A stretch of DNA of 64,000 bases from an uncultured virus (IMG/VR IMGVR_UViG_3300013121_000030) (Duplodnaviria; Heunggongvirae; Uroviricota; Caudoviricetes): positions 1-64,000 of the IMG/VR virus record IMGVR_UViG_3300013121_000030; one strand, given 5' to 3'. The translations under genes and the position numbers were made by a program. This document shows positions 1 through 60,307 of this stretch, piece after piece. Numbering within the stretch: position 1 is the first letter of the stretch; every line of letters begins with the position of its first letter. The notes beneath the pieces were generated by a model. The model was not told where the DNA came from. It was given only the letters and a program-made list of their open reading frames with translations, and did not search any database.

Positions 1-43
1 AGATCCTGCACATTCTTCGCACGGTATAACCGAGGCACCATCT

Positions 44-253
44 ATGACTTCTGAACATCGAAAGCAGGTGCGTGCGGCCCGCCTGGCCGCCAAGGCGAAG
101 CGTTCAACCCCACGAGAACGGTCTTCCTTGGGAGGAAAGTGCCGATCAGGAGATGCTGCAAACTTCCTTCCCACATTCTCAGGAGAGGAAATTCCAGTGG
201 ACCCTCAGGATCCAGAGTCCCTCACGCGAAACCTGGAGAAGATTCAAGATTGA
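44..253 (+). CDS. hypothetical basic protein
   Basis: 69-aa ORF preceded by GGTATAAC and GAGG; no recognisable motif. Confidence 0.4.
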   Translation: MTSEHRKQVRAARLAAKAKRSTPRERSSLGGKCRSGDAANFLPTFSGEEIPVDPQDPESLTRNLEKIQD

Positions 254-273
254 GGTCGAAAGGGCAACCCAAC

Positions 274-846
274 TCAGGGGGAGGCTTGAGTCATCTCGTG
301 TTGCACAAAGGCACGAAGTCGCTTGCGTGTGATGGGTGCTCTCCCATCCCATGGCAAGGGTTGCCCCCACAGGAATCCCAAGGAGAAGCTCAAGTTCCGT
401 GCCTTGGAGAAGAGGGAGGAGTCTGAGGCCAACTCGAAGACTGGATCCCCCTTGGGATCCACAGCCACCTCGGCCCGAGGAGATCCCTTGAGATGGTAGA
501 GGCCAATCACTCCTCCGGCGGATTTGTAGATCACAGAGTCCTGAGTGTATTTTCGCCCAAGCTCAAACAGGACCCCAGGGGCAATCCCAGGGATCAGGAG
601 GGATCGCTCTGTCACTCCTTCCCAAGATCCCTTGAGGGGAATTATGCGAGCATAGCCAGCTCGCTGGAGATCTGCCACCAGCTCGCCATGGCGAGCCTTG
701 TTGAGGGACTTGGGGCCGTTGGTGTAGGCAGACATGACCCCAAAAGTCCCCCCCACTTGCAACAGCCGAAGGAGCTGCCGCTGTCGGAAGGAAATCTTCT
801 GCTGGGCAGCTTCAAACCACCGCACCATCTGCTCTGAGAAGGACAT
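274..846 (-). CDS. DUF3293-like phage protein
   Basis: Pattern FGVMSAY...N..R..EL..DL...GY...GSWEG..ERS...LGRKYTQDSVI resembles the DUF3293 family; GGAG upstream of ATG. Confidence 0.55.
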   Translation of the reverse strand: MSFSEQMVRWFEAAQQKISFRQRQLLRLLQVGGTFGVMSAYTNGPKSLNKARHGELVADLQRAGYARIIPLKGSWEGVTERSLLIPGIAPGVLFELGRKYTQDSVIYKSAGGVIGLYHLKGSPRAEVAVDPKGDPVFELASDSSLFSKARNLSFSLGFLWGQPLPWDGRAPITRKRLRAFVQHEMTQASP

Positions 847-36785: not shown

Positions 36786-39700
36786 ATGCCCATCGAAAAC
36801 AAGGCCGAACGTAGTTGTAGTTTTGTGGACGCGCTGGTCCTGGGGTCCGCGCTTGCCGCCTTTTTGCGCCATCTTAACGGCGACGCGACAAATGGCCTCT
36901 ACAAGAAGGGCCAACAGCTCTGGCAGACACGGTATTCCGTGTCCTTTAAAGATGACCTGAAGCTCTTCCTGATTGAGCCTTTCGTTCAGGCGGGCAAGGC
37001 TCCCCAGCTTTTGGCCTCCAGTCGAGAGTTGATGCGTCTGACCCAAGCCAAGCGTATTATTTCGATCCTCCCGGATTTTCTCGCTTCGTTCTCGCAATGG
37101 CTTCCTGCACACCGGAACTCGTTTATTGAGTGCATGGACATGAGAACCAGAACGGAGGTTCTGGCACTGGCTAAGGTGGGCATGGATGCTGAGCCCGTGA
37201 CGCAGTTGGCGCAGCTTTCTGTTATCCGTCTGACAGGCCCCAACAAGGGAATGGTGGAGCAGTGGATTGATCGGGCTGCAAATGAAGCTGGAGTCATCGC
37301 CACCGATGATGCAGAAGCTCCGCTCAAGGGCATGGAGTCGATCCACGATTTGGGGGTTCAGATCTCGGAGTTGAACCAACAGATTACGTTGGAGCCAGAT
37401 GGCACCCCCCGTGAAGCCGAACTCATTGAGCATCGAGGAGATCTGCTCCAGAAACTTCAGGCAGAAGCTGACAAGAGTGCCACACCAGAGGCTGCTTTTG
37501 CGGTTGCAGCAGCAGCTGCGGCTACTCAGGGAGAGGACGGAGCTTCACGGATCTCCAGGAAGTACACTCTCACAGATGAACAGGAGGCTGTGATCCGCGC
37601 CGAGGGGTCCATTGTGGTGGCTGCGGGCGCCGGATCAGGGAAGACAGGGACTCTCATTGCTTGGCTGGACCACCTCGTTCACAACAAGGGGATCAACCCG
37701 GAGCGGATGGCGCTCATTTCGTTTACCCGGGCGGCATCCGCTGAGATTGCAGAACGGGCAAAAGGTCGCGCGGGGATTAGTGGGTCCTACATTGGCCGGA
37801 CGACCCACGCAATCGCAAGGACGGTTTTGAAATCTTTTGGTCCTTCCCATCAAGAACTCAACAGCCGTTACAAAGGCAAACTCCGTGAGGCCATCTTCAA
37901 AACGGAAGAGGCAGACAAGCTCTGGGACATTGCTCTCAAACAGGTTGAGATGGGGACTCCCAAAGGGGATGACGCTGACAAGGCTCAATACCTCAAAAAG
38001 GTATTGTTGACACTTATCCGGTCTGCCGCCTACCCTGACTTCTTTCAGAGCCTTCTGGATCAGCTCGATCGCGGAAAGATGCTGACCACCAACCAGTTGG
38101 GGGCTCTTGTCACCGACAAGTACAAGAATCTGCGCAAATTCCCTGATCTCTATCAGGGTGTCAAGGATATTGCTGAGGGGAGGGCTCCTGGGGCATCCAA
38201 AGTTGCTGCTCGGGAAGCCAAGCCGAAATCCCCCTACATGACCCAGCCAGCTGGAATGCGTTTCAATATCGGGGCCAAGGATTTACACGATCCGAAGGTT
38301 GACGTGGAGATGGTGCCCGGCAGAATTCGGCTGATCGTGGACAATTACATGTCTTCGGGGGTCAGTGTCGAGGAAGCCTATAAGATGGCCAAAGACGATC
38401 CAGACGCTCCGATCGTCCCGGCAGCTGCCTACGATGCTTATACTTGGCTCAAGCTCAATGACCCCATCCTGGGGCCGGCCATGGACTTTACGGACCAGAT
38501 TGTCTTGGCTCTCAAGGTGCTGGATGATCTGCCTCAAGCACGGGAAGCCGCGCAACGCATGTTTGATGTGGTGGTGGTGGACGAGGCTCAGGACTTGAGC
38601 GAAGTCCAGTTCCGGTTCTTCCAACACTTGATGAAAAAGACGCGCATTGGGGCCTACATTGGGGATGACAAGCAGAGCATTTACCGATTCCGCGGAGCGA
38701 TCCCCGAGAACTTCATCGCGCAGTCCAAAAAGTCCAAGCTTTTCCAGATGACCACCAACTTCCGAAGTGGGGAGGCCATCGTCAACGCAGCAAATCAACT
38801 CATCGCTCACAACAAGGGTCAGATCCCAATGGTCTGTTCGGCAGACCCCAAGAAGGGGGAGGGAGAAATTGGCTTCGTCCGAACCGCCTCTCATTCTGAG
38901 AGTGCTGAGATGGTAGCGGCCTCCATCGCAGAGTCCATCTCTTCGGGGGACTCTTCTGCCGCTGACTTCGGGATCTTGGTGCGAAACAATGCCGAGCTGG
39001 ATGCCTACGAGAAGGAATTGATCTCCCGGGGGATCCCATTCAAGAAGCTTCGCCCAGGGCCTATGTTCTTTGACAAGCCCCTTGTACGGGCGGTGATCTC
39101 GTGGATTCGCCTTGCGTCCCAGGTTGGGAGCCGGGAAGAGTTGAATGAGGCTGTCATGCATGCCTCCATGTTCCCAAGTTTTGGGCTCGGGCCTTCGTTC
39201 ATTTCAGCTTTGGCTAACATGACGCCATCCAATATGAGCTATGTGGATTACCTCCAAAGTGGCGCGAAGGTCTACACAGACCCAAAGTCCGCCTGGAAAA
39301 ACGCCAAATCCGTGGCTCCGTTTGTCGATGAAATGCGGGCAATGATGGCGATGGGAGGGGACACGGAGAGCCTGATCCTGGCGATCCTTGAAATCAAAGG
39401 CACCAAGGGTTCCCTCAAGAAGACCTTGAGGGGAAATGTCAGCGTTGATGACGTTGCCTCCAGTGGAGGAGGGGGGGCAGAGGCGGAGGCAGAGGCGGAG
39501 GCAGAAGCACTGGGTCCTTTGGCCCCAATCCTCAACATTGCGCGATCTGCTCCGAATCCTCAAGCATTCCTCGACTTCATCGTGAAAATGAAGGAAGCCA
39601 ACAGTAAGCTCCAAAAAGATGAGGAAAACTCAACGCCAGCAGTCTTGCTGGGGACAGTCCATACCTGGAAGGGACTCCAAGCACCTCATGTGTTTGTCTC

Positions 39701-40016
39701 CATGGCAGACGGGGTGTTCCCCAACACATTCTTTACTGGGGAAGAGGGAGCGGAACTGGAGGAAGAGCGTAGGCTTGCCTACGTGGCGCTCACTCGTGGC
39801 CAGTCTAAGGTCACAGTGATGGCTGCCAAGCTCAACTATCGTGCGGAGATCAATCCCCCGAAAACCCCTCCTCCCCAAAGTCCGTTCATCGGGGAGGCTT
39901 GCCTCAAGCCTGTGGGGACTGCCAAGAAGGCATTCTCTCGTCAGGCTTCTCGCTACGACTCAGATTTCTGGGAGAGTCGTGAAACTGCAAGGTCTTCAGG
40001 ATATTTCTGGAGCTAG
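36786..40016 (+). CDS. UvrD/PcrA-family SF1 helicase
   Basis: AGAGSGKT, SFTRAA, VVDEAQD, GDDKQSIYRFRGA, NFRS, TVHTWKGLQ, EEERRLAYVALTR. Confidence 0.95.
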   Translation: MPIENKAERSCSFVDALVLGSALAAFLRHLNGDATNGLYKKGQQLWQTRYSVSFKDDLKLFLIEPFVQAGKAPQLLASSRELMRLTQAKRIISILPDFLASFSQWLPAHRNSFIECMDMRTRTEVLALAKVGMDAEPVTQLAQLSVIRLTGPNKGMVEQWIDRAANEAGVIATDDAEAPLKGMESIHDLGVQISELNQQITLEPDGTPREAELIEHRGDLLQKLQAEADKSATPEAAFAVAAAAAATQGEDGASRISRKYTLTDEQEAVIRAEGSIVVAAGAGSGKTGTLIAWLDHLVHNKGINPERMALISFTRAASAEIAERAKGRAGISGSYIGRTTHAIARTVLKSFGPSHQELNSRYKGKLREAIFKTEEADKLWDIALKQVEMGTPKGDDADKAQYLKKVLLTLIRSAAYPDFFQSLLDQLDRGKMLTTNQLGALVTDKYKNLRKFPDLYQGVKDIAEGRAPGASKVAAREAKPKSPYMTQPAGMRFNIGAKDLHDPKVDVEMVPGRIRLIVDNYMSSGVSVEEAYKMAKDDPDAPIVPAAAYDAYTWLKLNDPILGPAMDFTDQIVLALKVLDDLPQAREAAQRMFDVVVVDEAQDLSEVQFRFFQHLMKKTRIGAYIGDDKQSIYRFRGAIPENFIAQSKKSKLFQMTTNFRSGEAIVNAANQLIAHNKGQIPMVCSADPKKGEGEIGFVRTASHSESAEMVAASIAESISSGDSSAADFGILVRNNAELDAYEKELISRGIPFKKLRPGPMFFDKPLVRAVISWIRLASQVGSREELNEAVMHASMFPSFGLGPSFISALANMTPSNMSYVDYLQSGAKVYTDPKSAWKNAKSVAPFVDEMRAMMAMGGDTESLILAILEIKGTKGSLKKTLRGNVSVDDVASSGGGGAEAEAEAEAEALGPLAPILNIARSAPNPQAFLDFIVKMKEANSKLQKDEENSTPAVLLGTVHTWKGLQAPHVFVSMADGVFPNTFFTGEEGAELEEERRLAYVALTRGQSKVTVMAAKLNYRAEINPPKTPPPQSPFIGEACLKPVGTAKKAFSRQASRYDSDFWESRETARSSGYFWS

Positions 40017-44896: not shown

Positions 44897-47800
44897 ATGC
44901 CTTTTTTCGGGACTGCCTACCAACCAGCAGGCGTATATGTTCGGACTCTTTACGACAATCCGACTCCATCTGTTTTGTCGAACGTCCGAATCCCCGTCTT
45001 TGTTGGTACGGGCAATGAGATTCTTACGCGGTTCGACCTTGAGCTGATCCGCGGATCTAGCTCCTTTAGCTCCCAGTTTGTCCCTGATGAGGACATGACG
45101 GGACGGTCGGTGGTCACGATTACCACAGCTGGCCAAGTCATCTTGGGGGACTTCAACGGGGAGCGCAGGCGGGTTCAGGTCCGGAATTACCCGATTGTTG
45201 ACCCGACGACCAATGAGCTGGTCGTCGACCCCAGCTCGATTTCCGTCCTCATCAATGGTCGACCCGATGTGGTTTTGGGTGTCGCAGATGCCAACCTTGG
45301 TGTCATTGAGATCAGCACAGCACCTGAACTGAATGACGAGGTGTTGGTCAGCTACAACTTCAAGCGTACCGACACCCAAATCACAGACGATGTGTCGGAG
45401 CAGGTATCCCCACTTCCTGCTTCTCTGGCGGGGGCTCAGGGGGATTCTTTTGTCTTCACAACAACTACAAATATCTTCCGGTTTCGGGTGGACGACGACC
45501 AGAATCAGGAGATCACGGTCAATCTGGGGACGGGCACAAAAAACCCTGCCACTGTGGTGAGCTTGATCAATGGTGCGGCAGCCTCCACATCCTTGGTGGC
45601 TTCGACCTTCACCAACAACTACGGGAAAGTAGCCATCCTCCTCTCGGCTGAGAGGGACATTGAAATCCTGGAGGGTTCTGCCAACCCCATTTTGGGATTC
45701 ACGACAGGCCAGCGCACCAACCGCAAGAAGACATTCTATGTCTTCAACGGGCCTATTGTCGACGGCTCTAATGGTGGGGTGACGACAACGGACGTCACCA
45801 AGGTTGAGGTTCGCGTCGATGGGATTTTGACAACGGCATCTGCGGTCGATGGGCAAAATAGGGCTGTAACCTTGTCCTTCGCTCCTGAGGTAGGGAGCGA
45901 GGTCAAGATCACCTACTACTTCAATGCCTGGCAGGATACCTTTGACTTCTTGCCGAACACCAACGTCACGGCGATCCTTCGGTGTGGCATTATCCCTGGC
46001 AACTCAGATTTTGTTCAAGGAGTAGACTACGTCCTTCAAGACAACCACGTTGTTTGGGGGACTGCTGCACTTATCTCAGCGGGCGTGGTGGCACCTTCTT
46101 CGGCTGCCTTGGGTCCAACCACACTGGGGGCATCCAGCCAGATCACAGCCACTCTTGTGGATAATCGGTGGTATTTGGCGGAAGCTCCTCCAGTCGTAAA
46201 CTCGACTGTTTCCCCCCCTGTGGAGTCCAGGACTCAGTTCACACTTCCTGTCCAGCCGACGACTGGGAACGGGCGAGACTTCCCGTTGGGGGCTGAGGTC
46301 TTTGAGAGCATCTCCAACAACCGTATTGACCTCCCCACCAACAACCCCAACCTGGTCCAGGCGTACTGGGGATTTGACCTCCAAGATGCCTTTAATCGGG
46401 GAGCAGTCGAGGTTTTGGAGGTTGATGGGACCACGATCACCCTGAAGAATGCAGTCCCAGTTGGGGCCCAAGTTTGGGCGACGTTCTACTACAACATTCT
46501 TGTTGATAACGAGTACACCCTCAAGGTTCAGACCCCAGGTCCCAGCGGGATTGGCACCTACTTCATCTTCGACAAGAACGAAAACCCCATCTACAACCCA
46601 CTTTTGGGCACCAAGGGACCAGCCCTCACGGGAATCACACTGGTGTTTCCGTCAGGTTCTGAGTTGCTCCCAGACGCGCATTTCGAGGGAGGAACAGGGG
46701 GACCCGTTGAAGAGACAGTGACGGTCTCCTTGGCAGAGAAGGATGCCACACTTGCCAAGTTCTCCTTTGATGGATCTGGGCCATACTCCTTTATCTCTGG
46801 AGCCTCTGATCGTGCCTATCTTCAAATCGATAGCGCACTCCTGGCAGGTGGAGCCGCTGGAATTTCTCTTTCGGCCCCCATGGGAATTTCAGGGCTTGGG
46901 TTCTCAGCATCCCTCTTGGGAGAGGAGATTGAGTACAGCATTGACTCAGGTCTGACCACCTACGACATCCTCCAAGGCATCAACGACAACGTGTCGATGA
47001 CACTGGATGGGATTACGATCACAACGGTCGTCCCCGAACAGTTGGGGGTGGATGCTTCTGCCTATGTTGAGGCTTTGAATGCTGTAGCCAAGACCTCCAG
47101 CTTTGCGCCTTCCTATGTCGCGCAGACACGGTTTGTGGGGACCACAACGATCACTGCGGGTGTTTATGACACCTTTACGATGTACTACACGGGTGTGACC
47201 AACGGGGCTTCGGGTCCCCTCCAGATCACAATCCCCCCAGGAAACTATGTCGCTCCGTCGTTCTTGGCCACGGCGGTTCAGAACGCGGTCAACACTGCTG
47301 TGGCGGCCTTGCCAGTCCAATTCGAGGGGTTGGCCATTGGGGTGGAGGCCAACTACAACGGCCAGTTGGCATTCTCTCTGGTCGCTGCGGACAGCGACAC
47401 AGGAACCTTCGCTTCCGGAACGATAACTTCCAGTGGGGCCCTCCTCGGAGACACCATCTCAATTGGTGGAATTACTCTGACTGGTGCGCTGGACTACACA
47501 GCTGGAGGCCTAAACTTCGACACTGGGCAGGCCTCCGCCACCATTCTGGCCAATGGTGTCCGGCCAGGGGATACTTTCACCATCGATGTTGGGGGCGGAC
47601 CAATCACCATCACCGCTTCTGGCTCCCAGACCCCGGGGGGTTTGGACTTCAACGAGGGTGTTCAGGCCACAGGGACCATCACAGTTGCAGGCCCCATTCC
47701 TGGGGATACCGTAACGGTGGCGGGAATCACGCTGACAGCTTCGGGTTCTCAGACTCCGGCAGGATTGGACTTTGACGAAGGAACTCGCGCTTCAGGAACT

Positions 47801-50800
47801 GCGACGCTTTCGGGGGTCCTTTATGGGGACACGATCACGATTGCGGGAGTGACGCTCACAGCGAGCAACACTTTGACTCCTGGAGGGCTCGACTTCAACG
47901 TCGGCCAAGCTGCCTCAGGAAGCATCAAGTGCGTCGGGATTCAGCCTGGCGACACCGTGACGCTCAATGGAACTGCGTTGACGGCTGCTGGGGCTCAAAT
48001 TCCAGGTGCTTACAACTTCAACGAAGGAGTTCAGGCCACTGGAACGATCACAACCTCCGCCGTTCTGACAGGTGACCAAGTGGCCATTGGTGGGATCACC
48101 CTCACCGCGGCTGGCGCTCAGACTCCGGGTGGCCTCAACTTCAACGAGGGCACCAAGGCGACGGGATCCTTCACGGTCACCACCTTCCCGACAACTGCTT
48201 CTCTCACCATTGGTGTCAACGTGTTGGCGCCCGCGGGTGGGCCGAGGACTCCAGGTGGGGATGATTACGACAACACCTTGGGTTCGGCCGCTGCAATTGC
48301 GGCCGACATCAATGCCGCTCTCAACGATCCCCTGAATAGCTTTGCGGGAACCACAACTTCTTCCGTTGTGGGCACCACAGTCAACCTGACTGCGGTTGTC
48401 CCCGGAGCTGTGGGTAACGCCATCGTTACCTCGTCCACAGACGGCACCATTACCGCAGCAGCAGCGACGTTGTTGGGTGGTGTGGGTGACGATAACACCG
48501 TTGCCGCATCGATTGCGGCCGCCATCAACGACGCTCTGAACGGCTTGAATGGGACAGCCTCTGCCACGGCGCTTCTCAATGTCGTCACGGTGACTGCGGT
48601 AACTCCGGGGTCGGCTGGGAACTCTATCCCCCTCACCACAACAACCCCGATTCGGTTGGCAATTTCAGCTGCCACTCTTTTGGGTGGCGTTGGAACCAAC
48701 AACACCGTTGCAGCCAGCTTGGCTGCTGCAATCAACGATGCTCTAAATATCCCATTGCCGACAACCTTCTCGGCAACGGCTATTGGAGATACTGTTTTCC
48801 TCACGGCGGTGGTTCCGGGGGCTGCTGGAAACCTCCTTACGCTCGCAACCACTGCTCCAGGAAGGGCCCAACTCTCTGGGCCTCTCATGACGGGAGGTTC
48901 AGGGACCAACATTACAGCAGCTTCGAGCCTTGTGTCGGCGATTTTGGATCCTGCCAACGGTTTGGTGGGGACTGTCATCGCAGACAATGGCGCTGGCACC
49001 CTGAACATTGTGACGATTGAGGCTTATACGCCAGGGTCAGGAGGCAACGCCATTATTCTGGCGTCCTCAACCCTGGTTCGGATCCTCCTGTCTGGAGGCA
49101 CACTGGCAGGAGGCGTTGGGGACAACACAACGGTCGCAGCATCAATCGCGGCGGCCATCAATGATGCTGGAAACGGCATCGTTGTCACAGCCACGGCCGT
49201 CGCCGCACTCAATGTGGTGACGGTTACGGCGGTCACTCCAGGAAATATTGGAAACCTGATCACGCTGGCTACCAGCAACAGCACCAGGCTTCTGGCAAAC
49301 GGGGCGACACTGTCGGGGGGGATCGGGACGAACTTCACCGTTGCATCCTCGATCGCGGCGGCCATCAATGACGCTGGAAACGGATTGGCTGTGGCAATCG
49401 CCGCCAACAATGATGGGGGGTTGTCCGCCACAGTCACCGTCTGGGCACTCACACCAGGGCTCGTTGGCAACACCTACACCCTCGCGTCCTCGAATCCTGT
49501 CCGGCTGGCCATCTCTGGGGGATTCTTTGTGGGTGGTGCAACAACCACCCAGGTCGCCAGCAGCATCGTCCAGGCAATCAATGATGTTCTGAACGGGCTG
49601 ACAACGTTGGTGGAGGCTGACAATAGCGCGGGCACCTCCAACATCATTACGGTAACGGCAGCCGATCCTGGGTCTCAAGGGAACTACATCAGTCTCGCCA
49701 GCTCGACTGGGGTACGTCTCCCAGTCTCCGGAGCATTCCTGACGGGAGGCTCCAATCTGGGCGGCGGATATTTGGAGTTCTTGGATGCCCCCACCATTAC
49801 TTCGGACTTCTCCATTCTTGCGGGAATTTCGACGGACTCGTTGCCGGGCCTGTCTCAAACCAAGCTGCTGAACTGCGATATTGCACGTCGCTTCACGGTT
49901 GCGGGAACTTCAGGACGGTTGATCTACGACCGGATCATCTTGAGGAACCGCATCGTCCCAGGATCGGGCTCGATCACCTACCATTCTCAGCTTTCGCAAA
50001 CTGAACTTGTCATCCAGGGCACTAACGCCCAGTCCTTCACAGGACTGGTTCCCAAAGCAGCTGGGTTGGCAGGCTTTGCTGCGACAGTTCAACCTGCCTC
50101 GATGTTCGGCGAGGTTGGTTTCAAGGACGGGCAAATCGCGGTTGGGACCTATGGTGATGCTCGGGATGGGATGCCAGCGGTTCGGTTCTATGCGCAGGGA
50201 GGCGTCAATCCCCAGAACAACGTTGTGAAGATCAACATTGACGGAAAGCCGTTCACGGTGGTCTTCACGAATGCCTCCGGAGCTGCAATTCCTTCGGGAA
50301 GCTCTGCACTGGTTCCACTTGGTCCTGTATCCATTGCGAACACTGTCCTACACCAAATCCAAACTGCAGCTTCTGCGGCAGGACTTGGGACGGTGATCTT
50401 CCAAGAGGGGGCAGGGATCCGTTACGTTTCGCTGTTGGACACAGCAGACTCCCAGATCACGATTGGGACGGGAAATGGGAACTCGACTCTGGGGCTCGTT
50501 GCTGGGGCAACATCCACTCGGACCCTTGTGGAGCCAGAAGTTGTGGCCTCGGCACTCATGGCTCACCATGCGGGTTCGGTGGCGTCGGTCCTTTTGGACT
50601 ACCAGTCGCCCACGAACACTTACTTTGCAGCCCAAGCACTTGCAGGGGTGGTGAGGGATTCAACCAATGCGGAGTTCCTCTTCATCGAGTCTCAAGCCAA
50701 CAACGTCATTGGGTTGGGGCCATCCAGCAACATTTTGGTGCTGGATGCACTGACGTCCTCGTGGCTGCGTGTGGGCACGGGTTTGGATACTTCCTCTGGG

Positions 50801-52237
50801 GAGGGATCCGCAGGAGAGTCAGGGTACCAGGGATTCTACGTCACCTCTTCGGATTCTGTAGATGGATCCGGAACTGCGAACACTTCCGAATTCAACTTCG
50901 GGGTGGGCCAGGATGGTGTGGTTGGCCAGACTTACCGTGACGAAGTGACTGGGCTGGTCTTCACACTTCTTCCTCGTGAAGGGAACGCCTCGTACCCGAC
51001 TGGGGTTGGAGCCACCTTTACCTTTGAGGTTCGCAAGTTGGTGGCAACAGATGCGAACATCCCCATCAATGCCATCCCTGGGATCCAATTGTTGGTCACC
51101 AACACCACGGGAACAGCGACGGGGAATACTGCGGTTGTAGAGACGATCGAGAGGGGTGGAGCGGAGCCTGCGGTGGGGGATAGCTACTTTGTGAGCTACA
51201 ACTACCAGAAGGATCTGGATCGTGAGCCCTGGAGCATTGTGCAGTTGTACACATCTCTCCAGGCGGTCATCTCCAACTACGGATCAATCGACCCAGATCA
51301 TCCCCTGACGTTGGCATCCTATCTGTCCAATCTCAATGGGTCGCTGTTGTGGGGTGTGCGTCAAGTCCCCAAAGAACCCGGCTCCAACCAAGCGTCTGTT
51401 GAAGATTATTTGGCGGCGTTTGACTCGTTGTCCGGAATCTTGCCCAGCGGGTTGACTCTGGACACGATCACTCCTCTTCGGGGAGATAGTTTGGTCCTCT
51501 TCCAGGCCCTTCGGAAGCACTGTGATGTGCAGTCCAGCTTCAAGTTCAGGGCCGAACGGACAGGGATCATTGGGGTGTCCTCCGGAACCCAACCCACTCA
51601 GGTAGGGAATATCGCCAAGGCGATCGGGTCTGAGCGGATGCGCCTGGTCTACCCAGACATTGTGACCCTGATTTTGGAGGATGCGGTTGGGAACCAGAAG
51701 ACCTTCTTGGTGGATGGGACCTACATCGCTGCGGCGTGGGCAGGCAATCGTGCCTCCCCAAATATTGACGTTGCGACTCCATGGATTGGGCGCACGAGCC
51801 TGATGTTCGGGTTTGATCGTCTGGCGCGTTCTCTGAATGACATCCAGAAGAATACGGTTGCCACCCAGGGTGTGGTGGTCTTCGAGCAAAAGGGATCCGC
51901 GATTCAGGTCCGGGACGCCTTTACGACCGACATGTCAACAATCTTGACACGTCTCCCAACGATTCGGACTATTGGGGATGAGGTTCAGAGAACGACACGA
52001 CGGGATCTGGAAAGGTTCATCGGAATCAAGTTCTTGTCTGGGATCCTCTCCGAGATCACAGGCCAGATAACGACGACCCTGAAGACCCTGAAGCGAGAAG
52101 AGATCATCTCGAACTTTACAGGTGTGGCAGCCAATGTTTCGAGTGAGGCAACAACGGTGGAGGCTCAAGCAGCCTACCAGCCGGTGTTCCCACTGAAGTA
52201 CATTCTGGTCACCTACAACCTTCGGAGCCGTCTCTAG
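44897..52237 (+). CDS. tail sheath protein (2446 aa) with large inserted repeat domains
   Basis: N-terminal YQPAGVYV..PVFVG; C-terminal sheath core (HC..QS...ER, SER..LVYP, GVVV.E, YQPVFPLKYI). Confidence 0.9.
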   Translation: MPFFGTAYQPAGVYVRTLYDNPTPSVLSNVRIPVFVGTGNEILTRFDLELIRGSSSFSSQFVPDEDMTGRSVVTITTAGQVILGDFNGERRRVQVRNYPIVDPTTNELVVDPSSISVLINGRPDVVLGVADANLGVIEISTAPELNDEVLVSYNFKRTDTQITDDVSEQVSPLPASLAGAQGDSFVFTTTTNIFRFRVDDDQNQEITVNLGTGTKNPATVVSLINGAAASTSLVASTFTNNYGKVAILLSAERDIEILEGSANPILGFTTGQRTNRKKTFYVFNGPIVDGSNGGVTTTDVTKVEVRVDGILTTASAVDGQNRAVTLSFAPEVGSEVKITYYFNAWQDTFDFLPNTNVTAILRCGIIPGNSDFVQGVDYVLQDNHVVWGTAALISAGVVAPSSAALGPTTLGASSQITATLVDNRWYLAEAPPVVNSTVSPPVESRTQFTLPVQPTTGNGRDFPLGAEVFESISNNRIDLPTNNPNLVQAYWGFDLQDAFNRGAVEVLEVDGTTITLKNAVPVGAQVWATFYYNILVDNEYTLKVQTPGPSGIGTYFIFDKNENPIYNPLLGTKGPALTGITLVFPSGSELLPDAHFEGGTGGPVEETVTVSLAEKDATLAKFSFDGSGPYSFISGASDRAYLQIDSALLAGGAAGISLSAPMGISGLGFSASLLGEEIEYSIDSGLTTYDILQGINDNVSMTLDGITITTVVPEQLGVDASAYVEALNAVAKTSSFAPSYVAQTRFVGTTTITAGVYDTFTMYYTGVTNGASGPLQITIPPGNYVAPSFLATAVQNAVNTAVAALPVQFEGLAIGVEANYNGQLAFSLVAADSDTGTFASGTITSSGALLGDTISIGGITLTGALDYTAGGLNFDTGQASATILANGVRPGDTFTIDVGGGPITITASGSQTPGGLDFNEGVQATGTITVAGPIPGDTVTVAGITLTASGSQTPAGLDFDEGTRASGTATLSGVLYGDTITIAGVTLTASNTLTPGGLDFNVGQAASGSIKCVGIQPGDTVTLNGTALTAAGAQIPGAYNFNEGVQATGTITTSAVLTGDQVAIGGITLTAAGAQTPGGLNFNEGTKATGSFTVTTFPTTASLTIGVNVLAPAGGPRTPGGDDYDNTLGSAAAIAADINAALNDPLNSFAGTTTSSVVGTTVNLTAVVPGAVGNAIVTSSTDGTITAAAATLLGGVGDDNTVAASIAAAINDALNGLNGTASATALLNVVTVTAVTPGSAGNSIPLTTTTPIRLAISAATLLGGVGTNNTVAASLAAAINDALNIPLPTTFSATAIGDTVFLTAVVPGAAGNLLTLATTAPGRAQLSGPLMTGGSGTNITAASSLVSAILDPANGLVGTVIADNGAGTLNIVTIEAYTPGSGGNAIILASSTLVRILLSGGTLAGGVGDNTTVAASIAAAINDAGNGIVVTATAVAALNVVTVTAVTPGNIGNLITLATSNSTRLLANGATLSGGIGTNFTVASSIAAAINDAGNGLAVAIAANNDGGLSATVTVWALTPGLVGNTYTLASSNPVRLAISGGFFVGGATTTQVASSIVQAINDVLNGLTTLVEADNSAGTSNIITVTAADPGSQGNYISLASSTGVRLPVSGAFLTGGSNLGGGYLEFLDAPTITSDFSILAGISTDSLPGLSQTKLLNCDIARRFTVAGTSGRLIYDRIILRNRIVPGSGSITYHSQLSQTELVIQGTNAQSFTGLVPKAAGLAGFAATVQPASMFGEVGFKDGQIAVGTYGDARDGMPAVRFYAQGGVNPQNNVVKINIDGKPFTVVFTNASGAAIPSGSSALVPLGPVSIANTVLHQIQTAASAAGLGTVIFQEGAGIRYVSLLDTADSQITIGTGNGNSTLGLVAGATSTRTLVEPEVVASALMAHHAGSVASVLLDYQSPTNTYFAAQALAGVVRDSTNAEFLFIESQANNVIGLGPSSNILVLDALTSSWLRVGTGLDTSSGEGSAGESGYQGFYVTSSDSVDGSGTANTSEFNFGVGQDGVVGQTYRDEVTGLVFTLLPREGNASYPTGVGATFTFEVRKLVATDANIPINAIPGIQLLVTNTTGTATGNTAVVETIERGGAEPAVGDSYFVSYNYQKDLDREPWSIVQLYTSLQAVISNYGSIDPDHPLTLASYLSNLNGSLLWGVRQVPKEPGSNQASVEDYLAAFDSLSGILPSGLTLDTITPLRGDSLVLFQALRKHCDVQSSFKFRAERTGIIGVSSGTQPTQVGNIAKAIGSERMRLVYPDIVTLILEDAVGNQKTFLVDGTYIAAAWAGNRASPNIDVATPWIGRTSLMFGFDRLARSLNDIQKNTVATQGVVVFEQKGSAIQVRDAFTTDMSTILTRLPTIRTIGDEVQRTTRRDLERFIGIKFLSGILSEITGQITTTLKTLKREEIISNFTGVAANVSSEATTVEAQAAYQPVFPLKYILVTYNLRSRL

Positions 52238-52247
52238 GAGAGAAGTC

Positions 52248-53039
52248 ATGGCGAACCAAGACAGAAATGCGCAAAATGGAATCCAAGGTTCCAGCTACCT
52301 CTACGACTATGGGACGACCGCCAACACTCGCACCGCAGTCTCCCAGAAGGTACGGATCCTCACTCCCATGTATGGATCGAATGCCAACATCCTCCTTCAG
52401 ATCGGGGTTCTGAGTTCTTTCAGTCCATCTGAGTCCAAGAATGTTGAGCCTGTTCGGGGGATTGGCTTCGGAGACCAAATCGCCGAGTTGGTCCCAAGCG
52501 TCACAGAGCCCATGGCAGCAGATATGGAACGGGCCTTCCTGTACCTCTCAAACTTGTGGCAAGCCACAGGTTACGCTGGAGGCATTGATGGGCCTGTGCG
52601 GTCTCTGCGCCACCATCGGTGGCCCTTCGACATTGAAATGCAACTTGTGTTTTCAACCCTGTCTGATGCAGACCTTACAGGCCAGGGTGGGGTGGGGTAC
52701 ACAGGTCCCTCGGGTACCTTCACAGGAGGGACCAAAGAGATCGTCTACCCAGAGGTGACCAACGATCTTAGCGGTCGACCAGGAGCCCTTCGTGGACACT
52801 CGGCTATCATCACGCTCTATGAGGCGTGCTGGTTTACGAGCTACTCCATCTCGAACATCAACAAGGACTCAGGAATGCTCATGGAGACCGGAAACGTTAT
52901 GATTTCGGATGTCCACGACTTCAACTCAGAGTACGGGGAGTTCTTGGCAACCGGGAACGACCCTCTGGCAGGACAGCTTGGATCTGTTAGGTTCAACTTC
53001 GGCAGCCAGAAGGGCGGGACGCCCTTCATCAACGTCTAA
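52248..53039 (+). CDS. tail tube protein
   Basis: Follows the sheath; IG.L.S.....VRGIG.G....E.VP, PFDIE, YEACWFTSYS. Confidence 0.8.
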   Translation: MANQDRNAQNGIQGSSYLYDYGTTANTRTAVSQKVRILTPMYGSNANILLQIGVLSSFSPSESKNVEPVRGIGFGDQIAELVPSVTEPMAADMERAFLYLSNLWQATGYAGGIDGPVRSLRHHRWPFDIEMQLVFSTLSDADLTGQGGVGYTGPSGTFTGGTKEIVYPEVTNDLSGRPGALRGHSAIITLYEACWFTSYSISNINKDSGMLMETGNVMISDVHDFNSEYGEFLATGNDPLAGQLGSVRFNFGSQKGGTPFINV

Positions 53040-57092: not shown

Positions 57093-57526
57093 TCTCACCT
57101 ACCCTTGAACGAATTTCGGTTCCCTATAGAGAGGCCGTTGACCGAATAAATCGGGAGTTTGGGGCTGAGCTTGCCTCAAAGAGAACCAGGGTAGAGGACC
57201 TCCTGGGCTCTGTTGATGAGCAAGAACTTCGACGAGCCCTTGAGAAAGTGGGGATAGATGGTCATCGCCAACGTCTATTCCAGTTAGCTTTTCGACTTCG
57301 GTCGGAGGCTCTGAATCGTCAAAAATTGGCATCCGTCGTGGGTTCTGTGAACCCCCACCTGAGGACTGTCAGTCATACCCTTGAGTCCATCCTCCGAGAG
57401 GTTTCTGCGGTATCTGTCCCACCAGGGACAGTCGAAAGCCAAAAGAAGAAAAAGATCCTGCGTCACCTCCAGGGGATGATGGACGGATGCAGAGCCCTAA
57501 AGAAGGAAGTCCATGGCGCAGTCTAA
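57083..57526 (+). CDS. hypothetical helical protein
   Basis: 147-aa ORF overlapping the portal start. Confidence 0.6.
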   Translation: MAMISPTLERISVPYREAVDRINREFGAELASKRTRVEDLLGSVDEQELRRALEKVGIDGHRQRLFQLAFRLRSEALNRQKLASVVGSVNPHLRTVSHTLESILREVSAVSVPPGTVESQKKKKILRHLQGMMDGCRALKKEVHGAV

Positions 57527-59378
57527 AAAAAGAACGCAGAGGCGCTCGCCTGTTGTTGCTGGTGGCCAAACACCTGCATCGAAGTCTTCCAACGAAGATA
57601 TGAGGGTCGTCGCTGAGGTGCCGCCAAAAAAGAGGGACCTGTATATTGGTGTCCCCACGTTTGCCCCTCGGCCCCCCACCCGAAAGATCGCAACTCTCCG
57701 AGAGAAAGTTGCAGCTTCTTGTGGGCCAGGAACAGGATCTTTTGGTGGAACCGGGGGAGTTTCTGTTGGAGGAGGCGGCGGTGGTTATGGTGGAGGATAT
57801 GGGAATCTAGGTGGGACAGTCACTCAGTCGAGTGGGGGGAATTTTTATTCTCCAGAGCTTTCCACGGACTTCCTTCAGCTTCCACAGAGCCTAATTGAGC
57901 AGTGGAACTTCTACCGATTCTTTTACTACAACCACCCATTGGTGGGGAGGGCACTGGATACGCATGTCCAGCTCCCACTTTCCAAGATCCGCCTGAGCCG
58001 TCCTGTCTGCAAGAACAAGGAATTGGGGGAAGAAGCTCTCCGGTTTTGTTTGAAGTGGGTGCGCAAGGTTGAGCTTTCTGAACGTCTCGCGGAAATTGTC
58101 TTCAATTTCTTCCTGATTGGGGAGGTCTTCATCTTCTGCGAAGACACCAACCCTGAGATGCCCGAGGAAGTCTCAAAGAGGGTGGTGACGAAGGTTCAGG
58201 AGGATGGGACCGTTACCTCCGAGTGGGAGGAGTACCCAAACGCGGATGATAGGATAACTTCGTGGATGAGGAAGAACTACAAGGGATGGACCAAGATCAG
58301 AGTGCTCCCTCCCGAACAAGTCCACATTGAGACCTTCCCGTTCACGGATGAAGTTTTGATTGAGATCATCCCTGACGCGAAGACCAAGTTCCTCATCGAA
58401 CAGGCCGACTCAGGGGACCCTAACGCGATTAGGGTTATGGAATCCATGGATGATTCGGTGATTGCGGCGGTTCGGGGAGGGAAGAATATTTCCCTGAACA
58501 CAGACCCCAACGCAGGTTCGTTTGTCTACTACATGAGCAACAAGCCCTCCCAGTATGAGCCTCGGGGGCACAGCATTCTTCAGCGGTGTCTTAGGACACT
58601 TGTCTATTCAGACATGCTCCGACAAGCCCAAAATCAGATTGCTTCTCGGCACATGACACCTGTGCGTCTGGTTTATGCGGAGGACATGAACGAGCAGCAA
58701 GTGGAGGAACTCAGATTCCAAGTTGACTTGGCGCTCCAAGACCCTGACTACTCCATCGTCACTAACTTCCAGGTTACATGGGAGGAGATGAACTCCAATG
58801 GTCGCCTCCTCGAACTTTCGGGAGAGTACGACATCATTGCTCGGGAGCTGTACGCTGGTTTAGGGGTCACAGAGTCCCTCCTCTCAGGGGAATCCTCCTA
58901 CGCGGGGGACCGAATCAACCTGGAGGTTTTGAATACCAGGTACATGGCCTTGCGGGACAAGGTTCAGAGCCTCGTGGAAAAGCACTTCCTGGAGCCCATG
59001 TGTAGGCGCATGGGGTTTGTGGAGGAGGACGAGGACGGGGACTTGGTGACTGTATTTCCCAGGTTCTCGTTCACACGGCTGGCCTTGCGGGACCACCAAG
59101 AGATTTTCGATGCCCTCATGCAGCTCTACAACAAGGGATCCTTGGATGTTGAGACCATCTATGAGGTCCTGAACCTGGACACCCAGACCATCAATGAGCG
59201 CCTCCAACGCGATTTTGGCTCTCTGGCAGATGCTTCATTCAATGATCTGGTTCGTGGTCTCTACGGTGAAGTGGGTCGTGCCTTGGCAGAGAGGACAGAC
59301 TTCACCAAGAAAGTGGCCGCACTTTTGAACCTCAAGTACACAGAGCCACCTCCTGAGGGAGGCGACAGGTTCGGGTGA
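57513..59378 (+). CDS. portal protein
   Basis: FY...PLV...LD.H..LPLS, GEVF, RG.SIL.R, GLGV..SLL.G..SY; downstream of TerL. Confidence 0.85.
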   Translation: MAQSKKRTQRRSPVVAGGQTPASKSSNEDMRVVAEVPPKKRDLYIGVPTFAPRPPTRKIATLREKVAASCGPGTGSFGGTGGVSVGGGGGGYGGGYGNLGGTVTQSSGGNFYSPELSTDFLQLPQSLIEQWNFYRFFYYNHPLVGRALDTHVQLPLSKIRLSRPVCKNKELGEEALRFCLKWVRKVELSERLAEIVFNFFLIGEVFIFCEDTNPEMPEEVSKRVVTKVQEDGTVTSEWEEYPNADDRITSWMRKNYKGWTKIRVLPPEQVHIETFPFTDEVLIEIIPDAKTKFLIEQADSGDPNAIRVMESMDDSVIAAVRGGKNISLNTDPNAGSFVYYMSNKPSQYEPRGHSILQRCLRTLVYSDMLRQAQNQIASRHMTPVRLVYAEDMNEQQVEELRFQVDLALQDPDYSIVTNFQVTWEEMNSNGRLLELSGEYDIIARELYAGLGVTESLLSGESSYAGDRINLEVLNTRYMALRDKVQSLVEKHFLEPMCRRMGFVEEDEDGDLVTVFPRFSFTRLALRDHQEIFDALMQLYNKGSLDVETIYEVLNLDTQTINERLQRDFGSLADASFNDLVRGLYGEVGRALAERTDFTKKVAALLNLKYTEPPPEGGDRFG

Positions 59379-59410: not shown

Positions 59411-60307
59411 ATGATTACCATTGACAGCGACTTCGAGCCTATCCCCTACGAAGATGGGTCTTTGGCAGCACCAGGAGATGCCGTCAACTATCGTCTAGGG
59501 CTGGAGGAAATCCCAGGATGGTTGGCGTTGGACCCCAAGTCCAATGTCTTCTGGACGGGTGACTTTGGTATTCGATACCAAGGCCGACGATTTGTTTTTG
59601 TAGGGGAAGAGAAGGAGTCAGGGGAGATCCCGCCGATCTACACCCTCGTCCGAGGCAAAGTGTCTCCCCGACCCGCCAAGAAGCCTCCCAAGGAGTGGAT
59701 TGGCTCAGATGGGTTCCTGACTTCAGAACTGTATACCGCCCAAATGCTGGTAAGCAAGACCGCGGCCAAGTATGTGAAGACTGCCAAGATCCATGGGGTG
59801 AAGCGTGGGGATGGGTCATCGGTCGGACTTTTCATCCCTCTCCCGCGTCGCCTCGCTCGCAAATTTCCAAGTCTCCACCCAGAAGACTCCTCTCCCTCTC
59901 ATGTGACTCTTATGTTTCTGGGGGAAATCAAGGATCCCGCAGAACAAAAGAGACTCGTCCAGACTCTTCAGAAGGAGATGGGATCCTGGTGGGACGATGC
60001 CACGGCAACACTCGGGCCCATGGGGATCTTTGAGAATGACGGGAACACAATTCCACATGCAAAAGTAGATTTTGACAGGGACTTTCGTGGACTCCGCTCA
60101 AAACTGAAAGTGGTTTTGGAATCGGCAGGTTTCCCGGTGGACTCCACACATGCGGATTACAAGCCGCATGTGACCATGGGATATTTTCCCAGCGGGGAGT
60201 GGGACCAGGATAAGGTTCGAGTTCCCACGGGGACATGGACTTTCGATTGCTTTGAGGTCTGGGGCCTTCCCAAGGTGTACCGGATCCCCTTCAATGGGGG
60301 CGCATGA
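59411..60307 (+). CDS. 2H phosphoesterase (2'-5' RNA ligase / Acb1-like fold)
   Basis: Two HxT motifs: SHVTLMFLG and YKPHVTMGY. Confidence 0.85.
   Translation: MITIDSDFEPIPYEDGSLAAPGDAVNYRLGLEEIPGWLALDPKSNVFWTGDFGIRYQGRRFVFVGEEKESGEIPPIYTLVRGKVSPRPAKKPPKEWIGSDGFLTSELYTAQMLVSKTAAKYVKTAKIHGVKRGDGSSVGLFIPLPRRLARKFPSLHPEDSSPSHVTLMFLGEIKDPAEQKRLVQTLQKEMGSWWDDATATLGPMGIFENDGNTIPHAKVDFDRDFRGLRSKLKVVLESAGFPVDSTHADYKPHVTMGYFPSGEWDQDKVRVPTGTWTFDCFEVWGLPKVYRIPFNGGA

Follow-up and report, generated by a model that had tools for sequence, protein, structure and literature searches.

The first 64 kb of a 234-kb uncultured virus record (IMG/VR IMGVR_UViG_3300013121_000030), the stretch of DNA analyzed here and referred to as the window, contains a giant open reading frame on the plus strand (44897..52237, 7341 nt, 2446 residues). 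Its product, P0001, is by predicted fold and by similarity to an annotated sheath the tail sheath of an uncultured jumbo phage. Residues 839-1623 of this protein consist of seven half-repeats of one type (A) followed by seven of a second type (B). These halves very probably make up a stack of seven sheath domains nested inside one another in the order A1..A7-B7..B1, built on an AB module that inserts into copies of itself. The original prediction, made from the letters of the sequence, had pointed to 47411-49753 (residues 839-1619 of the sheath), had taken A plus B to be one domain, and had proposed that each copy is lodged in the previous one. Structure prediction, mirrored similarity and co-evolution, and the balanced architectures of the relatives all agree with that proposal.

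The identity of P0001 as a tail sheath, also part of the original prediction, follows from the match of its C-terminal model to sheath structures and from the tblastn match to an annotated sheath. For residues 2020-2446, an AlphaFold2 (AF2) model that draws on 28 orthologues shows predicted local distance difference test (pLDDT) values mostly of 70-88 from approximately residue 2110 onward. Foldseek returns 74 PDB matches to this model at E<=1e-3 (best E 1.5e-10), and the top 50 are contractile sheath proteins without exception (50/50); the sheath matches include phi812, DSY3957, phiCD508, Lin1278, pyocin R2, T4 gp18, AFP and PVC. The model and these matches delimit a conserved C-terminal sheath core at about residues 2110-2446 (51224..52234, plus strand). 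With the C-terminal part as query, tblastn recovers gp326 of Tunturiibacter phage Tunturi_5, annotated ‘tail sheath’ (29% identity, 95% of query, E 2e-22), a protein of 1204 aa encoded in a 308-kb genome. Tunturi_5, an Acidobacteria phage, is the closest relative in culture, and further relatives are present in metagenomes of soil type. Gordonia phage sheaths are also matched by tblastn (E 2e-6), as is a 45%-identical gene in the uncultured 485-kb phage LR745208. With the whole protein, Pfam reports Phage_sheath_1C at residues 2356-2442 below threshold (E 5e-4, 20.5 bits against a cut-off of 26.9) and a weak match to DUF4815, and PHROGs reports phrog_28344 alone, a family whose function is not known. 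Sequence and profile searches against PDB chains, using the repeat zone, the full-length profile and the C-terminal profile, gave nothing meaningful. In the proposed organization, the conserved sheath core would be assembled from the N- and C-termini, with about 2000 residues of extra domains inserted between them.

Self-comparison of the repeat region, a dot-plot check suggested with the original prediction, reveals two periods, of ~41 residues over 839-1128 and ~70 residues over 1129-1623. Segmentation resolves residues 839-1623 into seven A units (40-45 aa) and then seven B units (69-72 aa), with the switch from A to B at residue 1129 (nt 48281), in keeping with the predicted count of seven and seven and a turn placed near 48283. 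All units lie on the plus strand and are numbered here in chain order, such that unit a_i pairs with unit b_(8-i) to form a domain, from the outermost, D1, to the innermost at the tip, D7. The N-terminal halves are a1 of D1 (47411..47530, residues 839-878, paired with b7), a2 of D2 (47531..47665, residues 879-923, with b6), a3 of D3 (47666..47788, residues 924-964, with b5), a4 of D4 (47789..47911, residues 965-1005, with b4), a5 of D5 (47912..48034, residues 1006-1046, with b3), a6 of D6 (48035..48157, residues 1047-1087, with b2) and a7 of D7 (48158..48280, residues 1088-1128), the last being contiguous with b1. The C-terminal halves follow in the reverse order of domains: b1 of the tip domain D7 (48281..48496, residues 1129-1200), b2 of D6 (48497..48703, residues 1201-1269), b3 of D5 (48704..48913, residues 1270-1339), b4 of D4 (48914..49129, residues 1340-1411), b5 of D3 (49130..49336, residues 1412-1480), b6 of D2 (49337..49549, residues 1481-1551) and b7 of D1 (49550..49765, residues 1552-1623). 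The most divergent unit of each kind is found at the turn (a7 and b1). At the DNA level the copies are only 60-80% identical to one another, which indicates that they are old, and no recent gene conversion at the DNA level is seen among the repeats. A set of 44 metagenomic orthologues (2439-2489 aa, on contigs up to 618 kb), 45-77% identical in the repeat region, was examined with hidden Markov models (HMMs) built from the units and with the alignment, and the 7+7 layout is present in 44/44. Low A counts in the most divergent of these orthologues are detection failures caused by indels, since the alignment of P0045 shows seven A units.

The proposed architecture would account for this layout with a single type of domain. 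Residues 839-1623 would represent seven homologous copies of one ~110-residue alpha/beta domain, each with a beta-meander as its N-terminal half (A, ~41 aa) and a combination of helix and sheet as its C-terminal half (B, ~70 aa), and every copy would sit in the A|B junction loop of the next outer copy. The chain would run outward through A1..A7, turn at residue 1129 and come back through B7..B1, with neighboring domains linked by two chain crossings and the whole block beginning and ending at the same point of a host beta-hairpin. The competing explanation is that the A and B zones are tandem arrays independent of each other, the first folding as a beta-rich rod of seven units and the second as seven autonomous domains, with equal numbers by coincidence. 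On a dot-plot both zones do look like ordinary tandem repeats. The relationships between the two zones, however, argue strongly against independent arrays, as do the predicted structure and the relatives described below, and we regard that explanation as very improbable.

The similarity between the zones runs in mirror order, as had been predicted. When the 7x7 identity matrices of the A and B units of this protein are compared by a Mantel-type correlation, the mirror order gives r=0.82 and ranks 1/5040 permutations, against r=0.12 and rank 1652/5040 for the same order; without the divergent a7/b1 pair, the mirror order ranks 4/720. Co-evolution gives the same picture. Pairwise distance matrices were calculated for each unit among the 44 orthologues, the global trend was removed and the residuals were correlated; for 7/7 A units the row maximum is the mirror B unit (a1-b7 0.27, a2-b6 0.41, a3-b5 0.65, a4-b4 0.07, a5-b3 0.33, a6-b2 0.27, a7-b1 0.18). 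Across all assignments the mirror permutation again ranks 1/5040, and the same-order assignment ranks 4653/5040. No co-variation is seen between neighboring units of one array, and the mirror signal can therefore not be put down to linkage of adjacent DNA. Divergence among the 44 orthologues rises from base to tip in both halves, with values of 0.36, 0.30, 0.36, 0.33, 0.44, 0.42 and 0.45 for a1 to a7 and, read backwards from b7 to b1, of 0.32, 0.33, 0.40, 0.38, 0.39, 0.46 and 0.44. The best within-protein paralogue of an A half agrees with that of its mirrored B half in 100/308 comparisons (63 in the same-order control, 51 by chance). The congruence of the two halves that the original prediction had called for is thus found in mirrored order only.

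Structurally, the pairing of each A half with its mirrored B half was read from an AF2 model of residues 830-1630 (801 residues), built with a 44-sequence alignment (mean pLDDT 91.3; predicted template modeling score, pTM, 0.52). In this model three or four strands make up each A unit, and each B unit opens with a 12-residue helix, continues with strands and closes with a short helix. The topology was taken from the first and last model residue aligned by VIA-align to each solved chain, over ~60-100 aligned residues. In model numbering, the contiguous a7+b1 domain covers the range 256..365, a6+b2 covers 217..435, a5+b3 covers 174..506 (a weak match; root-mean-square deviation, rmsd, 9.3), a4+b4 covers 133..577-582, a3+b5 covers 91..631, a2+b6 covers 48..720 and a1+b7 covers 7..792. 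These ranges begin and end no more than a few residues away from the boundaries that the sequence itself gives for the units, at 10, 50, 95, 136, 177, 218 and 259 on the A side and at 371, 440, 510, 582, 651, 722 and 794 on the B side. Single solved domains therefore span A_i..B_(8-i) in the model, as the original prediction had anticipated for a structure of these residues, and because matches of ~90 residues stretch over 200-785 residues of chain, independent tandem arrays are excluded at the level of the model.

A homologous sheath that lacks the repeats provides a comparison of a different kind. The sheath of LR745208 (LR745208.1, L002 5305-10257; 1651 aa) is colinear with residues 1-834 of P0001 and then with residues 1615-2446, at 44% identity on both flanks, and exactly the A7B7 block (~835-1614) is missing; it constitutes a natural ‘minus-stalk’ control. 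The entire block is a clean indel relative to this sheath, which two unrelated arrays would not lead one to expect. Because it is present or absent between adjacent residues of the host hairpin, the block starts and ends at one place, as is the case for a nested stack. Neither this 1651-aa sheath nor the 1204-aa sheath of Tunturi_5 contains convincing A or B units.

More distant relatives reveal a grammar of open and closed brackets. A profile of the repeat region recovers 740 representative clusters at E<=1e-3, and the best 150 of these 740 representatives were scored as strings of A and B units. The first-pass A HMM undercounted divergent A units, and the A and B HMMs were therefore iterated and individual cases inspected by eye. 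Equal numbers of A and B occur in 107/150 representatives, and with A read as an opening and B as a closing bracket, 107/107 of these strings are balanced; together with the 7+7 layout of the orthologues, this bears out the predicted equality of A and B counts in homologues. AB is the commonest architecture (44), followed by AABB (22), ABAB (15), ABABAB (7), AAAABBBB (3), AAABBB (2) and AAAAAABBBBBB (1), and further balanced strings include AABABB, AABBAABB and longer tandem forms. None of the 107 equal-count strings begins with B or has a BA or ABBA order. Both the predominance of AB and the complete balance of the equal-count proteins are at odds with arrays of separate A and B repeats. Some representatives are scored as B-only strings, such as BBBB, as independent arrays would allow; in the cases inspected by eye, however, divergent A units lie upstream in matching number (6+6 in P0060, 4+4 in P0114). 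P0173 shows an apparent excess of B because another insertion interrupts one of its B units.

Several points weigh against the nested stack. B units exceed A units in 43/150 representatives, and some true B-only arrays may exist. Three-dimensional evidence for the pairing comes from a single AF2 model, with contacts read indirectly from the ends of the VIA-align ranges; within it the a5/b3 row is weak at rmsd 9.3, and a pTM of only 0.52 leaves the overall shape of the stalk undefined. The co-evolution signal of a4/b4 is small (r=0.07), though still the maximum of its row. The nested stack nevertheless remains our strongly preferred reading: the chain topology, the autonomy of the inner blocks and, by analogy with the external domains of other sheaths, the exposed location are demonstrated at the level of structure prediction and comparative sequence analysis.

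The individual AB domain, as modeled, has a fold that is already known, namely that of the external domain found in the sheaths of A-1(L) and PhiTE. Foldseek on the complete 801-residue model returns no match at E<=1e-3. Superposition on single domains is informative: the external domain of the A-1(L) sheath (8kee_C, residues 91-186) matches the tip domain with Z 11.2 and rmsd 2.0 over 92 residues at 21% identity, and domain D3 of the PhiTE sheath (9cb9_A, residues 86-179) matches an AB unit with Z 9.6. The T7-like nozzle protein gp12 (Z 8-9.7), the sheaths of Mu, Milano and 7-7-1 (Z 8-9) and T4 gp11 (Z 6.3) match the AB fold as well. The predicted domain also resembles the outer domains of flagellin and of the filament cap (overall Z 6-7.4; FliC of P. 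aeruginosa, 4nx9, Z 7.4; FliD of E. coli, 5h5v, Z 7.3). Flagellin_IN (PF07196) is not among the whole-protein Pfam matches at E<=1, and the resemblance to flagellin outer domains is structural only. No Pfam family matches ten AB-containing representatives, and PHROGs assigns some of them to phrog_28344 (function not known) or phrog_165 (tail sheath) and to no others. Small AB proteins match phrog_165 ‘tail sheath’ at its positions ~96-210, and one AB protein of 133 aa is annotated ‘phage tail sheath gpL-like’.

The relatives suggest how such a stack could be assembled. The AB domain may act as a mobile insertion module of phage virion proteins that accepts a further copy of itself, and this would generate the A^nB^n grammar. 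P0047 is a complete free-standing gene (L006 3221-4786, 521 aa) with four nested AB domains, and it matches profile positions 129-615, the inner a4..b4 block, with 436 bits; its close similarity to that part of the sheath hints at an exchange of nested cassettes among genes. On its phage-like contig, P0047 adjoins genes for a ribonucleotide reductase and a RecD-like helicase. P0046, an unrelated protein of 2042 aa, has AABB at its N-terminus, and a short relative, P0049 (302 aa), is likewise an AABB protein. In P0173 and P0112, the inner copy occupies other sites, inside A before the last ‘F..G’ strand and inside B after the helix. Insertion at these sites yields strings such as AABABB and AABBAABB, and more than one loop is therefore permissive. 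On balance we lean toward a general rule in which any contiguous inner block a_k..b_(8-k) would fold on its own and could be transferred as a cassette, by a single copying step, into the A|B loop of another copy. Applied recursively, such an A^nB^n rule would differ from ordinary tandem repetition: phages could use it to equip sheaths, spikes and free-standing virion proteins with rigid stalks whose chain runs out and back and whose length depends on the number of nested domains (n = 1 to 7 observed).

How the stack of P0001 reached seven levels is less clear-cut. The original prediction proposed a period of three and growth by duplication of a nested block of three domains, and a single copy-and-insert event of this kind would make D1 resemble D4, D2 resemble D5 and D3 resemble D6, with D7 as a separate tip. 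Within this protein the period is indeed visible: a1/a4 (0.60), a3/a6 (0.61), b2/b5 (0.67) and b4/b7 (0.54) rank among the best pairs, paired identities vary in step, the best diagonal of the B zone has an offset of 211 aa, and D7 is the most divergent unit in both halves. Outside these observations the period fades. The best diagonal of the A zone has an offset of one unit, and the best partners by family-averaged identity (a1-a6, a2-a4, b2-b4, b6-b7) differ from a period of three. In trees of A units, of B units and of concatenated domains, D1, D4 and D7 each form a clade specific to their position, whereas D2, D3 and D6 are not monophyletic across orthologues, and no consistent sister groups of D1+D4, D2+D5 or D3+D6 are seen. 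The best partner of D3 varies by lineage, and does so almost identically in its two halves (D2 in 18 A and 18 B halves, D5 in 10 and 11, D6 in 9 and 9). A partner that changes between lineages and is concordant in both halves points to later replacement or conversion of whole domains and not to an ancestral period of three. The age of the DNA repeats also tells against a single block event. We consider such an event unlikely as the general history; the period holds for this protein, and growth by a three-domain block is weakly supported and looks lineage-specific, with a faint trace in this lineage only. The data are read as a seven-deep stack that predates the family, followed by replacement or conversion of whole domains between positions that affected both halves together. 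A possible origin of the stack is a cassette of three contiguous nested domains that was copied once into the tip loop, after which a divergent tip was added.

In the assembled tail, each sheath subunit would bear on its outer face a stalk of seven domains, traversed by the chain on its way out and back. That such stalks project from the subunits is reasonably inferred from the topology; together with roughly 1150 residues of other inserted domains per subunit, the double-linked stack would give the tail a bristly or thickened appearance. Extra sheath domains have been proposed to serve in host-surface adhesion or in tail cementing (Evseev et al. 2022, PMC9230969), and both roles are conceivable here. 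Under the second, the nesting would be real, but the domains would lie along the tail surface and interlock with neighboring subunits, forming an outer mesh that stabilizes a very long jumbo-phage tail; the published proposal of cementing speaks for such a mesh, and conservation that is highest in the base domains and lowest at the tip is compatible with either role. The tip domains, however, are the most variable (mean distance 0.44-0.46, against 0.30-0.36 at the base), which is more typical of an exposed, ligand-facing end, and the AB domain also occurs, single or nested, in many unrelated virion proteins. Lateral stabilization is accordingly possible but rather doubtful. Because the tip is more variable, the function tentatively favored, at less than even confidence, is that of a bristly tail used for surface scanning or for weak, multivalent adhesion.

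Comparison with known systems separates what is familiar in this protein from what is new. In the type-2/type-3 sheaths of cyanophage A-1(L) and of PhiTE, the external domain shares the AB fold and lies outside the core, away from the tube (PMC11972413, PMC9230969); in PhiTE it is D3, described as an external sheath domain (PMC11972413). Those sheaths, however, are 450-500 aa long and carry one copy, whereas P0001 carries seven nested homologous copies in 2446 aa. In a survey of 112 modeled sheaths, type-2 members measure 426-713 aa, and ‘five and more’ domains occur in Ackermannviridae and jumbo phages (PMC9230969). As in P0001, the core of T4 gp18-type sheaths is built from the termini, and their additional domains are formed by outgoing and returning segments (Evseev et al. 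2022); unlike them, P0001 has one domain inserted recursively into itself to a depth of seven. The outer domains D2-D3 of FliD and those of flagellin likewise have a similar fold and belong to hairpin-type subunits whose filament is made thicker by domains inserted at the surface. Giant flagellins, which owe their size to duplication of internal domains (PMC6248924), may be seen as a functional analogue of the sheath stack, but their repeats are tandem, whereas the order in P0001 is strictly A^7B^7, and no sequence-level relation was detected. The domain of T7-like gp12 (residues ~150-248; 9jyz, 7ey9) and T4 gp11 have the same small alpha/beta insertion fold as AB, in single copies within unrelated host proteins and without self-nesting; the sharing of this fold by gp12-like proteins and gp11 indicates that the module is widespread on phage tail surfaces.

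Domain insertion is common, and insertion of a domain into its own copy usually goes one or two levels deep. To our knowledge, no described sheath, T4 included, has nested domains that are homologous copies of each other, and P0001 would be the largest sheath subunit known to us, against type-2 sheaths of 426-713 aa. No account of this architecture turned up in literature searches on nested (Russian-doll) insertion of domains in sheaths or flagellins. The fold, and additional sheath domains built by out-and-back segments, are thus already known; the homologous self-nesting, the seven-deep stack and the A^nB^n grammar of the module appear to be new, on evidence that is strong but purely computational. 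Together, the conserved seven-level stack and its relatives at depths 1, 2, 3, 4 and 6 form a natural series in which to study the folding of discontinuous domains with halves up to about 700 residues apart and the origin of such recursion at the DNA level. The architecture predicts a jumbo-phage tail with a long bristle on every sheath subunit. It also draws attention to AB as an uncurated, widespread surface module of virions, represented in the 740 clusters recovered here, and for protein engineering the double-linked nested stack is a possible design for stiff, loop-displayed stalks of defined length.

The neighbors of the sheath gene carry no Pfam or PHROG names. Directly after it lies a 263-aa gene (52248-53039, plus strand) that has no Pfam or PHROG match, is 40% identical to Tunturi_5 gp329, a ‘virion structural protein’, and is 61% identical to the gene adjoining the LR745208 sheath; it is a candidate for the tail tube. 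Farther downstream in the window are a weak match to a Mu-type portal (57513-59378, plus strand, E 4e-4) and, directly after this portal-like gene, a 2H/LigT-like phosphoesterase (59411-60307, plus strand; 2_5_RNA_ligase2, E 1.4e-8). Just upstream of the genes preceding the sheath is a 1076-aa UvrD/REP-type superfamily 1 helicase (36786-40016, plus strand; Pfam E 1e-41; phrog_1967 DNA helicase).

Beyond the window, the same genome has two more genes with one AB domain each. One, an open frame of 532 aa, lies at G000:C1 about 145894-147489 (L004 841-2436) and has its AB unit in the middle of the frame (A at residues 178-218, B at 223-289). The other is a 354-aa open frame at about 163670-164731 of the same record (L005 1105-2166), with A at residues 85-128 and B at 138-206. 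With these two additional genes, the module decorates several proteins of one phage.

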